In this document: positions 1,992 to 8,410 of the stretch, in pieces
Layout of the letters: every line of letters starts with the position of its first letter
Numbering within the stretch: position 1 is the stretch's first letter
NCBI GenBank assembly: GCA_965219445.1
Contig: CBDCNQ010000003.1
Span: 160,001-224,000, forward strand
Direction of reading: 5' to 3'
Source: Longimicrobiales bacterium
Lineage (GTDB): Bacteria > Gemmatimonadota > Gemmatimonadetes > Longimicrobiales > Gaopeijiaceae
Length of the DNA stretch: 64,000 nt
The notes under the pieces: model-generated
Databases searched by the model: none
What the model saw: only the letters and a program-made list of their open reading frames with translations
Told to the model about the DNA's origin: nothing
Made by a program: the position numbers and the translations under genes

Positions 1992-2324
1992 CGTGGACTC
2001 CTCTCTCTAAAGAGAATAGGTGTCCACCGTCAGGGGCTAACTCCAAACGTTACCGGGCTTGATGTCGCGATGAATTACGCCTTGGCGGTGTGAATAGTCG
2101 AGGGCCTCCGCCATGTTCGTGGCGATCCGCACTGCTACGTCCACTGGGAGTTGATGAGAGCTAGGATCAAAGGCATCATAGGGGCATGGCGACCGCTACC
2201 GGTACCGATCAGCAGCGAAGCAGCCCGAAGACGAAGAGGCGTTCTCCTCCGGGAGCGGGTGCGCGTTCATCATTATTCGCGCAAGCAAGCAACCCAACCC
2301 GTCCTACCCAAGAGGAGGATGCCG

Positions 2325-3614
2325 ATGGAGAGGTATATCGGACTCGACGCACACGCGTCGAGCTGCACGCTGGGGATTGTAGGCCCCAGCGGCAAGCGCT
2401 TGGGCTCGCAGGTGGTGGAGACGAACGCGCGGGCGCTGATCGAGGTGCTGCGAGGGATTCCGAGGAACCGGCACTTATGCCTGGAAGAAGGGACGCTGTC
2501 GGGGTGGCTGTACGAGGTGCTGAAGCCGCACGTGGAGGAGCTGACGGTGGCGGGGGTCGGCAAGAGCCGGGGCCCGAAGACCGACAAGCTGGACGCGTTT
2601 GCCCTGGCGGAGAAGCTGCGGATCGGATCACTGGAGACGACGGTCTACAAGAACCGGGGCCAGTTCAGGCGGCTGGGGGAACGGGCGAAGAGCTACGACT
2701 TCTTGGTCGGCGACACGGTGCGGGTGAAGAACCGGCTCAAGAGCGTGCTGCGCTCGAGAGGAGTGGCCTACGGCGCGGGGCGCTCGGTCTACTTAAAGCG
2801 CGACCGGGAGGAGTGGTTGGCCAAGCTGCCGGAAGCGAGCAGGACGACGGCCGGGTTGCTGTACGAGGAGCACGACGCACTCGTGGCATTGAGGGCGAAG
2901 GCCGAGAAGGCGTTGCTGGCGGAAGCACGCAAGCATCGAGAGTGGCATGTGCTGAAGACGTGCCCGGGTCTGGGTCCGATCCGGACGGCGGAGCTCCTGC
3001 CGGTGGTGGTGACGCCGTACCGGTTCCAGAGCCGGAGCAGGTTCTGGGCGTACTGCGGACTGGGCGTCGTGATGCGGAGCTCGTCGGACTGGGTGCGGGG
3101 TCCGGGTGGGCGGTGGGTAAGGGAACCGGTACAGCAGACGCGGGGGCTGAATCGGAACTTCAACCACACGCTGAAGCGTGTGTTCAAGGGCGCAGCGACG
3201 ACGGTGATCGGTCGGGCCGAGGACGAGCCCTTGTACCGCCACTACGAGCGACTCCTGGAGGGGGGCACGAAGCCGAATCTGGCGAAGCTGACGATCGCGC
3301 GTCAGCTCGCCTCGATCGTGCTAGCGGTGTGGCGCACGGGCGAAGCGTACGACCCAAGAGACTGGAAGCGACGGAGTAAACCGGCCTGGGATCGGCGAGC
3401 GTGGGGTCGAAAGCGGTCACAACATGGGGTCCGACGAAACGGAAGCGAACCGGTTACAGGGGACAGCATCCATACACACCGTGGGCCGGGGCAGAGAGCC
3501 CAAGCCCCCACTCAAAGGCTATGCACCCCTGGAGAGCCGAACGAAGCGATGGGCCACAGAGTCCCAGATAGAAGGATGGTTCCCGCTCCAGAGCGGAGAA
3601 CGCGACGGCTGTGA
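2325..3614 (+). CDS. IS110-family DEDD recombinase/transposase; natural end probably 3379 (apparent 1-bp deletion near 3355)
   Basis: MERYIGLDAH, EEG, KTDKLDA, CPGLGPI, FWAYCGL, serine loop RSSS, IARQLA..VW. RBS GAGGAGG before ATG 2325. Confidence 0.92.
   Translation: MERYIGLDAHASSCTLGIVGPSGKRLGSQVVETNARALIEVLRGIPRNRHLCLEEGTLSGWLYEVLKPHVEELTVAGVGKSRGPKTDKLDAFALAEKLRIGSLETTVYKNRGQFRRLGERAKSYDFLVGDTVRVKNRLKSVLRSRGVAYGAGRSVYLKRDREEWLAKLPEASRTTAGLLYEEHDALVALRAKAEKALLAEARKHREWHVLKTCPGLGPIRTAELLPVVVTPYRFQSRSRFWAYCGLGVVMRSSSDWVRGPGGRWVREPVQQTRGLNRNFNHTLKRVFKGAATTVIGRAEDEPLYRHYERLLEGGTKPNLAKLTIARQLASIVLAVWRTGEAYDPRDWKRRSKPAWDRRAWGRKRSQHGVRRNGSEPVTGDSIHTHRGPGQRAQAPTQRLCTPGEPNEAMGHRVPDRRMVPAPERRTRRL
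3457..3591 (+). ncRNA. Putative bridge/seek RNA with target-binding and donor-binding internal loops
   Basis: Loop 1: closed by CAGGGG..GCAT/ATGC.CCCCTG and GTGGG/CCCAC; holds TACACACC (3473-3480, reverse complement of target GGTGTGTA) and TCAAAGG (3512-3518, identical to target left side plus core). Loop 2: holds GATG (3548-3551) and ATAGAAGG (3568-3575), matching the donor circle junction. Ends approximate. Confidence 0.85.
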
Positions 3615-3864
3615 ACGTCTTCCGGACTGCGATGCGGACCCTGCGAGCGCACCCCTCCCCACCCTGAGTCGTCGACCGGGCAATCCAAACCATGCGGACG
3701 CCGACGGTCAAAAAATGAGCCGACGGCGCGTGGGGAAGGTGCGTCTTGACCGCCAGCCCCATAGAAGGGTGTGTAAAAAAAGAGGCGACGTACCTTTCCG
3801 CTAGGTAGTAAGAAGTTAACCAGCGAATCCCGGGTGAGCGCCCGGGGGAAAGGAACGATGCCTC

Positions 3865-5109
3865 GTGAGGAAGAATATGGTGGGACCCGAGAGTGAGTCC
3901 AGCACGCCGACGTGGGAGTGCTTGGAAGCGCTGGTTCGTGAGAAGGCCCAGGAGATGGTCCAGCGGATTCTGGAGGAGGAAGTGACGGAGTTGCTCGGCC
4001 GGGAGAAGTCGGAGCGGAAGACGGTCGTAGACCCGGCGCCAGGCTACCGCAACGGCTACGGCAAGGCTCGGCGGCTGGCGATGAGCTCGGGCACGATCAT
4101 GCTCCGACGGCCCCGGGTTCGAGGCATTGAGGAGCGGTTCGAGAGTCGGGTGTTGCCGTTGTTCGCACGACGGACGAAGGAGGTGGGTGCTCTGCTTCCG
4201 GAGCTGTATCTGCACGGGCTGGCGGAGGGAGACTTCGAGCTGGCGATGCGGGGCCTGCTGGGCGAGGGGGCCCCGTTGTCGAAGTCTTCGATTTGGCGGC
4301 TGCGGGCGGGATGGACAAGGAAATTCGAGGAATGGTCGAAGCGCTCGCTGGCCGACCGTGAGGTCGTCTACGTCTGGGCGGACGGGATCTACGTGAAGGC
4401 GGGGCTCGAGCGGGACAAGGCAGCGCTGCTGGTGGTTCTCGGTGCGATGCGAGATGGTACGAAGGAGGTGTTGGCCCTGAGATCGGGCTACCGAGAGTCG
4501 GTCGAGTCCTGGTCCGAGGTGTTGCGGGATCTGAAGGCACGCGGCATCGAGGCGCCCCGGCTTTTGATGGCGGACGGCAACGCGGCGATCTGGGGCGCAG
4601 TACGGCAGGTATGGCCTGAGGCGGGCGAGCAACGGTGCTGGAACCACAAGATGAGGAACGTGCTGGACCGGCTGCCTCAGCGGGAGCAGAGCGAGGCGAA
4701 GGACCTTCTCAGGACCGTGGTCTACGCACCGAGGCGGTCCGAGGCGCTGAAGGCCCGTGAGGCGTTCGCCAGGCGCTACAGACCGTGGTATCCGAAGGCG
4801 GTGGATGTACTCGAGGACGACTGGGAGCGGATGGTGGCGTTCTACGACTTCCCCGAGGACCACTGGAAGCATCTACGCACGACGAACGTGGTCGAGAGCC
4901 CCTTTGCCGCAGTACGGCTCAGGACAACGGCGGCGAAGCGCTTCAAGCGGGTCGAGAGCGCTACGGCGCTGATCTGGAAGCTGCTCTTGGTGGCGGAGAA
5001 GCGCTTCAGAAGGCTCGACGCTCCTCACCTCCTCAAGGACGTATTTGAAGGAAGAAAGTTCGAAGACGGAAAGCCCGTCTCAACCCAACAGCGGAAAAAC
5101 GCCGCCTGA
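3865..5109 (+). CDS. IS256-family (mutator-type DDE) transposase
   Basis: YRNGY, YVWADGIY, LMADG, QRCWNHKMRN and LRTTNVVESPF motifs; 414 aa, intact. Confidence 0.95.
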   Translation: MRKNMVGPESESSTPTWECLEALVREKAQEMVQRILEEEVTELLGREKSERKTVVDPAPGYRNGYGKARRLAMSSGTIMLRRPRVRGIEERFESRVLPLFARRTKEVGALLPELYLHGLAEGDFELAMRGLLGEGAPLSKSSIWRLRAGWTRKFEEWSKRSLADREVVYVWADGIYVKAGLERDKAALLVVLGAMRDGTKEVLALRSGYRESVESWSEVLRDLKARGIEAPRLLMADGNAAIWGAVRQVWPEAGEQRCWNHKMRNVLDRLPQREQSEAKDLLRTVVYAPRRSEALKAREAFARRYRPWYPKAVDVLEDDWERMVAFYDFPEDHWKHLRTTNVVESPFAAVRLRTTAAKRFKRVESATALIWKLLLVAEKRFRRLDAPHLLKDVFEGRKFEDGKPVSTQQRKNAA

Positions 5110-5138
5110 AACATTTACACACCTATTGACCCAACCTC

Positions 5139-6256
5139 GCCGTGCCCTGTCGAGGTTCCTGGGGTACGGACCGTTCTTCTATACCGACTAGCGGCTCACC
5201 GTTGGTGCGATCGAGGATGTACACCCAGCCTGTTTTGCCCGCCTGGGCCAATCCTTTACGTGGCACGCCGTCGTATTCCAGATCAAACAAGACCACAGGG
5301 TTAGGCGCATCATAATCCCAGATATCATGATGCACCTGCTGAAAGTGCCAGCGGTACTCACCGGTGTAGGCATCCAGTGCCACGATGGACGCTGTGAACA
5401 GGTTGTCCCCGGCACGCACCGCTCCGTTGTAGTCGGGCCCGGGGTTGCCGGTCGAAAAGTAGATCATGCCCAATTCAGGATCCACTGCAGGCGTGTGCCA
5501 CACAGTGCCCCCGCCGGTTCGCCAGGCATCGTTGTCAGCAGGCCAGGTATGATGACCGAATTCGCCCGGGCCTGGCACGGTATGGAAAGTCCACAGCAAA
5601 CTGCCGTCGGCCGCACTGTAGGCCTTCACCCGCCCTCTTGCTGCAAATTCTGCACCCGCGAAGCCGGTAATCACCATGCCGTTGAAATACAAGGGAGCGC
5701 TGGTGATGGTATACCCTTCTTCCCAGGCTTCGGCCTGGATGGACCAGACCTCTTCACCGGTCTCCATATCCAGCGCCTTAAGCACGCCATCCAGCTGTCC
5801 GACAAAGATTTTGTCTTCGCCAAATCCCACACCGCGACTGGTCCATCCACAACAGACCGTCGAAATTTCATCATCAAGATTTGCCCGGTAGCTCCACAAA
5901 ATTTCACCGGTTTCAATGCCCAGGGCGAAGACATCGTCTGCACCGGTTACGACATACATGACCCCTTCGTGGATGATGGGCTGCGCCTCACCTGAATACT
6001 TCGCGCCGACCCCAGACTCGTCGAGATGAGTACGCCAGACCGGACCAAGTTGATTGACATTGTCCGTGTTGATCTCCGTCAATGCTGAGAAGTTTCGGTT
6101 GAAGAGGTCCCCGCCGTTGGTCAGCCAGTCGGCCGTAGGCAGTTCCGACAGCGTCTCTTCATCCGGTCTGACCTGTGAAGATTCAGCGGCATTTGCTGTC
6201 AGCGAGGAACACAGGACAAGTAGTCCTGCCAAAAGGTTAGACGTATGTCTATGCAT
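5139..6256 (-). pseudogene. PQQ-dependent alcohol dehydrogenase-type quinoprotein, C-terminally truncated by IS256
   Basis: Signal peptide, vicinal CC (VCCGWTSRG), GAEFAARG, TGNPGP, HHDIWDYDA, AGKTGWVYILDR. Reading frame ends inside the IS256 right IR after ~370 aa. Confidence 0.9.
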
Positions 6257-6982: not shown

Positions 6983-7190
6983 CGTTCTACCTCCCTCCTC
7001 AAGACGAGGCGTTCGGCCAAATCCTGCTTGGCATCTTTTCTACAAGGCGTCCGTCCGTTCGCTGACGGGAGCGTCCGCAACGATTACGACTCCGTAGGTC
7101 GCGGCGTCACTCGGGGCGCGCTGTTCTCGGGGAACGTAAAGGTGGTCCCTTTTGGGTGCCAGGGGACACGAGCCAAAATACTTGTACCAG

Positions 7191-7212
7191 TGGGCCTGGG
7201 TAGACTTGAACT
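7191..7212 (-). other. tRNA-Ile 3' fragment (T-loop to acceptor end)
   Basis: AGTTCAAGTCTACCCAGGCCCA, 21/22 identical to 13127-13148. Confidence 0.8.
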
Positions 7213-8410
7213 GTTCGGCTTGAGCGTTCACGGATTCGAGAACGTTGGTCGTCTTCAGCGAACGGCCAACCAGCGGGAACACGCCGAGTCGATGCAGGGT
7301 CAACGTCTCCTCGAACCCTTCGTCCAGGCTTGCAACCGCCGACTGGTTGAGCTCGTCCAGCTCAGCCCGCATCGCTTTCAGGTCCCGCTTCGCCTCCTCG
7401 TAGGTGGGCCGCTCGTAGGCTCGCTGCAGACGTCCACACCAGGCCTTCTGCTCGGTGCGTGGCAGGTACGAGACCACATTCTCTCGCTTGTGCCATTGGC
7501 AGCGCTGGATAAGCACCTGGCCCCGGAACACCGTCGTCACTGCCGACTTCAGCCCCTTGGCGCCGTCGATCACGACCAGCGCTCCGGCCGACAGATCGAG
7601 TCCCCGATCCTTCAGGGAGCGCAGAAAGCTCGTGATCACCCGGGCGTTCTCCGTTTCCGTCTGCACGAATCCCGCAAACACCTTGTCTCCCCCCATCGTC
7701 ACGGCTAACGCGACGACGATTTCGTCATTGGCAAACGTCTTGCCATCCAGGAAGAGCGCCACGACGTCGAGCTCCGTAAGCTCACGTTCCTGAAACGCCT
7801 TCAGCTGCCTGGCGGTCGCCTTCTTGAACTCCCGCGACACCGTCGACTTAGACAGCCCGATCGCCCCCGGCACTGCCTCCACCGCGGCCTCATAGTCACG
7901 ACACGAGATCCCAAGCAGGACCTTGCGGAACAACCCCTCGTCCACCTCGCCCGCCGCCCAGTGCAAGCGCTCGTACGACTCCAGACGCGCCTCTCCCTCC
8001 AGACCTCGCACCCGAGGGACCCGGACCGGATGACGCTGCCCGCCCAGGCGTACCGAGCCCGGGTTGCTCCCATGCCGGTAGATCACTTCTCCTTCTCCCT
8101 TGCGGGCGTGCCTCGGACCCGCCAACCGCTCGACCTCTTCGTCCAGCACCCGCCCCACCTCCGCCAGCCCAAGCGGTATCAATTCCTGGATCAATTCCAC
8201 CCGCATCTCGGTCCTCAGCGCCTCGATCGCTTCCCAGTCCAGCTCACTCGGCGCACCCATCCTTCGGTCCTTCTTGCCTCGACGTACAAGCTGTGGCTCT
8301 CTCTCCATTGGTGGCCTCCTTCCTCTCATGGTTCGGTGTTGTGTTCCTCACACCCACCTTACCCGAGGTCGGAGGTCACTTCAAATTCCAACTAAACTTA
8401 GGACACCCTC
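7213..8410 (-). mobile_element. Truncated IS256-family element (left end at 8410; transposase from ~8329 broken at ~7213)
   Basis: LFLDGK, VVIDGAKGL, QRCQWHKRENV, LKTTNVLES, after which similarity stops at the tRNA fragment. Left end GAGGGTGTCCTAAGTTTAGTTGG; no right IR found. Confidence 0.88.

Follow-up and report, generated by a model that had tools for sequence, protein, structure and literature searches.

The window, a stretch of 64,000 nucleotides from a contig of a Longimicrobiales bacterium (CBDCNQ010000003.1, positions 160,001 to 224,000), holds near its left end an IS110-family element that lies after bp 15 of the left inverted repeat (IR) of an IS256-family insertion sequence. The features on which the argument below depends are all on the forward strand and are as follows.

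2158..2172, + strand: bp 1-15 of the left IR of the IS256 host, with the left target half at 2167-2172 and the core AG at 2171-2172
2173..3767 (equivalent to 2174-3768), + strand: IS110-family element, with the right-hand core AG at 3766-3767
2178..2185, + strand: short left subterminal repeat, covarying in homologs, whose partner at 3756-3762 is one base shorter
2319..3379, + strand: recombinase gene, with D10, E56, D89, D92 and the invariant S255; stop at 3379 in 19 of 24 copies
3458..3530, + strand: predicted target-binding stem-loop of the bridge RNA, from the alignment consensus
3473..3481, + strand: 5' target guide; complements the top strand on the right side of the core
3512..3518, + strand: 3' target guide, of the same sequence as the left target half, the core and the first base of the element
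3536..3580, + strand: predicted donor-binding stem-loop, with a donor guide (3568-3575) identical to the element's right end
3746..3751, + strand: -35-like hexamer, brought to 17 bp from a -10-like hexamer (2174-2179) in the circle junction only
3768..5138, + strand: rest of the IS256 host, with the right target half (3768-3775), the subterminal motif, the transposase (3865-5109) and the right IR (5114-5138)

The host is a member of the IS256 family, as its Mutator-type transposase (NF033543, 295 bits against a cut-off of 150), the motif TGTAAA at bp 20-25 of its end and the 8-9 bp duplications at 8 of the 27 IS256 copies listed all indicate, the window's own copy being without a duplication. 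Beside the IS256 insertion an IS3-family element (791-2045) interrupts a gene that is kinase-like by motif (1-790 and 2046-2157), and a second IS256-family transposase lies at 7040-8329. The left flank of the window's IS256 (2150-2157) matches the right flank of the copy at C4:1220295, and its right flank (5139-5146) matches the left flank of the copy at C3:152179; at least 8 IS256 copies have flanks swapped in this way, which suggests recombination between IS256 copies or misassembly.

Removal of 2174-3768 rebuilds, as the original prediction from this sequence had held, an IS256 left end that agrees with the right IR ending at 5138 in 20 of 25 positions (other registers give 3-10 of 25), and every string quoted in that prediction is present where it was placed. 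The boundaries 2173-3767 leave the same rebuilt sequence and are preferred. The G of the left junction is kept in relatives with A, T or C after the target AG, which makes AG the core and G2173 the first base of the element; AAGG, formerly proposed as a shared core, has been dropped on this account. The reconstruction is confirmed by a relative genome (G063) with 1 occupied and 43 free left ends, 42 of the latter exactly equal to the rebuilt end, and uninterrupted IS256 copies with this same left end do therefore exist. In the rebuilt circle junction the -35-like and -10-like hexamers, 17 bp apart, match 9 of 12 consensus bases, and no promoter-like site was found in the linear form of the element. 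The subterminal repeats, which covary, come to lie 10 bp apart in this junction and are short, with a longest ungapped match of 5 bp that becomes about 7-8 bp when one bulge is allowed.

Both IS110 domains are recognised in the inner open reading frame (PF01548, 39.7 bits, cut-off 29; PF02371, 32.3 bits, cut-off 21.3). Among 78 homologs D10 and E56 are invariant and D89 and D92 are conserved in at least 90%; S255, likewise invariant, aligns with the serine of the ESG of IS621, the next residue being S and not G, and residues 253-255 have a pLDDT below 50 in the predicted structure. A Foldseek search with that structure returned IS621 and ISCro4 as top matches (E 1e-13). The score against NCBIfam NF033542 (112 bits) is below the cut-off of 140 and identity to the 30 plasmid IS110 matches listed is 22-27%, and the low score is taken as a mark of divergence, not of exclusion from the family. 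Longimicrobiales genome bins contain the closest named relatives, with protein identities of 94-99%, and no relatives were found in viral contigs and phage records. By its DEDD RuvC and Tnp domains, putative catalytic serine and predicted two-loop RNA the element is assigned to the IS110 family of bridge recombinases. In the window's copy the recombinase frame is shifted at a run of three C (3353-3355) and continues to 3614; three C occur in 5 of the 24 genome copies and four C in the other 19, as also in contigs of three runs, and the three-C state is a minor allele or an assembly error. The claim of a complete set of recombinase, guide, target and donor is doubtful for the reading frame of this particular copy, which is frameshifted as assembled.

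The label IS1111-type, also given originally, is apt only for the layout of the element, guide order included, and fails for its repeats and catalytic motif. About 145 bp of non-coding sequence lie upstream of the gene as against about 390 bp downstream, the match to the top strand is 5' of that to the bottom strand, and the 10 bp between the subterminal repeats (sTIR) of the rebuilt junction equal the sum of the 7 bp and 3 bp extensions typical of the group. ISEc11 and the IS1111 seekRNA elements, as described in PMC11187229, likewise have a 3' non-coding RNA, the top-strand match before the bottom-strand match, 10 bp between the subterminal repeats of the circle, a junction promoter and natural reprogramming. 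Unlike the elements of that description, the present one is without an sTIR of 11-13 bp, perfect or nearly so, and carries GLGVVMRSSSD, with its SS, in place of GL-P----S(T)G; its donor loop, unlike theirs, is a simple internal loop parallel to the target loop. With IS621 and ISCro4 (PMC11208160; PDB 8wt6, 9t56) it shares the fold, two internal loops and a dinucleotide core, the AG here being the CT core of IS621 read on the other strand. It differs from the elements of that account in its downstream RNA, mirrored guide order and identity of about 19%, and in a spacing between core and right target that varies by 0-2 bases among its relatives. In a tree its clade stands apart from all 6 reference proteins, two of them named, with long branches flagged as unsure.

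The two internal loops proposed for the 3' non-coding region are borne out by an alignment of the window with 79 distinct homologs, drawn from 158 loci. Its consensus consists of two parallel stem-loops, each with an internal loop, in which 12 of 25 pairs show two-sided changes and 96.6% of cells are paired, against far lower values when partners are slid. The guide segments are unpaired, and those of the target loop are hypervariable within a conserved scaffold. Folding of single sequences is not significant (z -1.3 and -1.2), so the structure rests on the alignment; the minimum-free-energy pairing 3' of the donor guide, which differs from the consensus, was set aside. The non-coding region has no match in Rfam, and contigs of the one RNA run cover only 2408-2693, outside the region of the predicted bridge RNA.

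The target guides at 3473 and 3512 are in place as originally read, and across homologs they covary with the flanks; mononucleotide shuffling of the non-coding region yields both strings at once in 3 of 20,000 trials. The 5' guide matches the right flank at 5.64 of 7 positions against 3.11 when shuffled (right flank available for 60 of 79 homologs, which have 44 distinct guides), and the 3' guide matches the left flank at 4.54 of 5 against 2.43 (55 of 79 homologs, 24 guides); neither value is reached in 10,000 shuffles, counts that overstate significance because the homologs are related. The 5' test takes the best of three registers, in data and null alike, and was chosen after the data had been seen; in a fixed register, with misparsed guides included, the signal is weak (3.61 of 7 against 2.15). 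Guides scoring 6 or 7 divide 13/12/3 among the registers, so the spacing from core to target varies. The donor guide, as had been proposed, follows the element's own right end, to which it is identical in 60 of 64 homologs, 10 of them with shared changes. A second donor guide was formerly seen in a GATG pairing with CATC of the left end. The non-coding region contains this tetranucleotide at three places (3548, 3575 and 3631), and 67% of shuffles contain it too; it is a full match to the left end in just 31 of 58 homologs. As a donor guide it is unsupported, and no clear second donor guide was found in the region.

It is clear from the genome as a whole that the copies share a target site. In 23 of 24 cases the left end of the element comes after bp 15 of an IS256 left IR, a count that leaves out one further diverged left-end remnant, and the remaining copy (C2:336726) is outside IS256, at a site where the left half is perfect and the right half partial. 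Among the 24 complete right ends, 21 run straight into the IR and 1 does so across a 1.9-kb intron-like insert, while of the other two one abuts an AG site inside a tandem partial copy and one belongs to the off-target copy. The insert (G000 C4:1169766-1171667, - strand) is a group II intron-like element in an occupied left IR, 4 bp from the IS110 junction, with 13 copies in the genome, mostly after hairpins and GTG. Partial tandem copies, with the right end fused to AG sites within the element's own recombinase gene, occur at G000 C5:1612737 and at L035, and fit off-target recombination at AG cores. Three extra bases are duplicated at the right junction in four relatives (L032, L047, L060 and L066), a further sign of imprecise joints.

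The exact 14-bp target does not occur in the 4.56 Mb genome. IS256 left ends number 21 occupied against 5 free, all 5 of the latter mismatched in the target, and none of 29 right IRs, all of which mismatch the 3' guide, is occupied. This saturation of intact sites holds for the present assembly only, since contigs of related runs hold free intact left ends; no circle or empty-site joint was found in those contigs, which cannot show absence. Relatives vary in the same respect. One (G062) has 5 element left ends at the IS256 left IR and 10 free ends, all mismatched and 8 with the core changed; a second (G065) has 6 element left ends at the IR and 3 free ends, 1 of them intact; a third (G064) has 2 at the IR and 1 free, mismatched end; and a fourth (G061) has one element with changed guides and 3 free left ends, intact. 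This free IS256 end is present in 6 of 401 sampled genomes of the phylum, all in the window's family, two of them being G062 and G064.

Over 1370 bp three of the free copies in the window's genome do not differ from the occupied type, and each has a different single change in the 6-bp left half of the target. In two of these variants the first bases of the target seem to run on into the final bases of the right end of the element, and both may be leftovers of imprecise excision. IS621 excises, less efficiently than it inserts, according to PMC13626964, and a copy-out mode is reported for CazIS110 (10.1101/2025.10.25.684509). The genome shows no hybrid left end in which IS256 borrows the last bases of the element: in 21 of 21 occupied ends the subterminal motif comes after the element's right end. 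An alternative with somewhat less than even odds accepts the targeting and takes the mismatched free copies as pre-existing IR variants or assembly errors, with neither escape nor scarring. It draws on a further genome (G385) in which 37 of 40 free ends have a variant target and none of 5 element matches carries the window's guide (its three full-length elements all carry other guides), and on the one of the five variants that is a homopolymer deletion bridged by no contig (C5:267938), other homopolymer differences being present in the assembly. It is less easily reconciled with three different left-half changes in copies otherwise of the occupied type, and an assembly error is harder to sustain for the one such variant that an independent contig (run X2) also shows next to the same flank.

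How the element came to occupy so many hosts can be read from the haplotypes. Eleven occupied hosts identical over 1371 bp carry 10 element haplotypes (29 variable sites), a pattern that favours separate insertions over co-movement, and one element haplotype is present in two host subtypes. Hitch-hiking on the host, which had been offered as one outcome of the arrangement, would mean that the IS256::IS110 composite spreads as a unit under the IS256 transposase and that the shared site reflects few insertions. This is improbable given those haplotypes, the insertions in host subtypes that differ at about 150 and 280 alignment positions, and the one off-target copy outside IS256. It gains something from the 7 of 23 occupied copies with their own 8-9 bp duplication, which are equally expected if the host moved first, from one pair of identical hosts with a common element haplotype, and from the minimal left end (bp 1-14) that is functional in the ISCth4 junctions described in PMC7780238. 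Mosaic element haplotypes show recombination, and gene conversion could hide co-movement. That the site is instead chosen by protein contacts with IS256 DNA or transposase, the RNA match being incidental, is scarcely credible, as recombinases 80% identical land elsewhere, at sites spelled by their own loops, while one 69% identical with the same loops lands at the IS256 left IR.

The best full explanation of the element's position, the pattern of its copies, the covarying loops and the covariation of guides with flanks is that an IS110-family element sits in the IS256 left IR because its predicted two-loop bridge RNA guides the recombinase there, a reading to which we assign a probability of about 0.85. 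By analogy with IS621 and ISEc11, the element would circularise and so create a promoter at the junction, the donor loop would pair with the element's right end and the target loop with both strands of the IS256 end, and strands would be exchanged at the AG core. IS256 copies that had already spread were probably entered one by one until no intact site remained. Each insertion puts 1.6 kb between the terminal and subterminal binding sites of the transposase and is likely to lower the mobility of the host. In the IS256-family member ISCth4, as reported in PMC7780238, binding covers bp 1-12 and 14-25 of the end, the two regions that the insertion parts here, and integration still takes place with junctions that retain either bp 1-14 or bp 15-26 of the left end alone; blocking may therefore be partial, and movement of the composite possible.

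Guides have changed repeatedly within the clade. One relative (L118, recombinase 69% identical) has the same guides and site, yet nests among elements with other guides, and a single clade of IS256-left-IR guides is rejected (p-AU 0.0002; 33 of 119 rows) for a group defined by guide after a first tree had been seen; targeting of this IR arose twice. A sister 94% identical (L040) has probably been retargeted to the right IR, which its changed guides match at 12 of 14 positions and in which its left junction lies, although this is one rearranged copy and 9 of 10 right IRs in its genome are free. Among 60 relatives of which the right flanks alone were scanned, the longest open reading frame right of the element is an IS91-type Y2 transposase pointing at it in 10, and 9 of these end 177-342 bp away. 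The right flanks of ten relatives (L047, L052, L078, L088, L090, L100, L112, L146, L159 and L169) look like the oriIS end of IS91/ISCR, a reading prompted by the oriIS consensus, and the commonest guide pair of the clade spells that oriIS-like site. Rebuilt sites of the IS91-adjacent relatives resemble published ISCR oriIS, which in ISCR27 is placed 236 bp past the stop codon (PMC8894482, PMC13023784), and it looks as if many relatives target the IS91 oriIS. Elsewhere, a 77% identical relative (L247-L249, in G385) lands close upstream of the genes of a repeated family and has guides resembling the clade's own left-end sequence, and a 40% identical one (L006; 15 matches in G005), whose donor loop starts in the same way, has multiplied and lies in clusters in a genome of the same genus.

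A more far-reaching and rather unlikely proposal is that this divergent bridge-recombinase clade lives on IS ends (many on IS91 oriIS, the IS256 left IR twice independently and the right IR once), that intact sites have been filled here, and that the free hosts are immune through donor-derived bases left by the recombinase's own imprecise excision, an arms race with immunity scars. Blocking and an arms race are what we infer from the arrangement, and the counts in G385 tell against the latter.

Parasitism of IS ends is seen here and is already known as a kind. IS4321 and IS5075, of the IS1111 group, reportedly insert into the terminal IRs of the Tn21 family, and share with the present element a fixed site in another element's terminal repeat and a downstream non-coding region; they differ in that the host here is IS256, the recombinase is distant in the tree, the sTIR is short and bulged, and GL...SS replaces GLVP...TG. 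IS1383 is said to insert into the IRs of IS1384, likewise those of another IS though of a different host, and by comparison the guides, saturation and target variants can be read in the IS256 case. ISEc21, as described in PMC11187229, has a guide aimed at another IS family and differs in targeting IS3 transposase codons rather than an end and in having its RNA upstream. Searches of the full-text literature returned no description of IS256-end or oriIS targeting by IS110-family elements, and subscription papers, ISfinder, TnPedia or bioRxiv supplements may hold one; the term IS256 has 0 matches in the main text and 7 supplements of PMC11208160. The RNA-guided mechanism and the targeting of IS ends are both already known.

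What sets this case above routine targeting of IS ends is the pattern of saturation, scars and convergence, likely a readable record of parasite against host for a known RNA-guided mechanism. Recombinase, guide, donor, occupied target and resistant target variants form a natural set for testing, and the clade shows natural reprogramming of bridge guides, both convergent and between the two ends of one host. Its mirrored guide order, SS motif and variable spacing from core to target broaden the known bridge scaffolds, and its members suggest that IS110 elements may cap the spread of other IS families.
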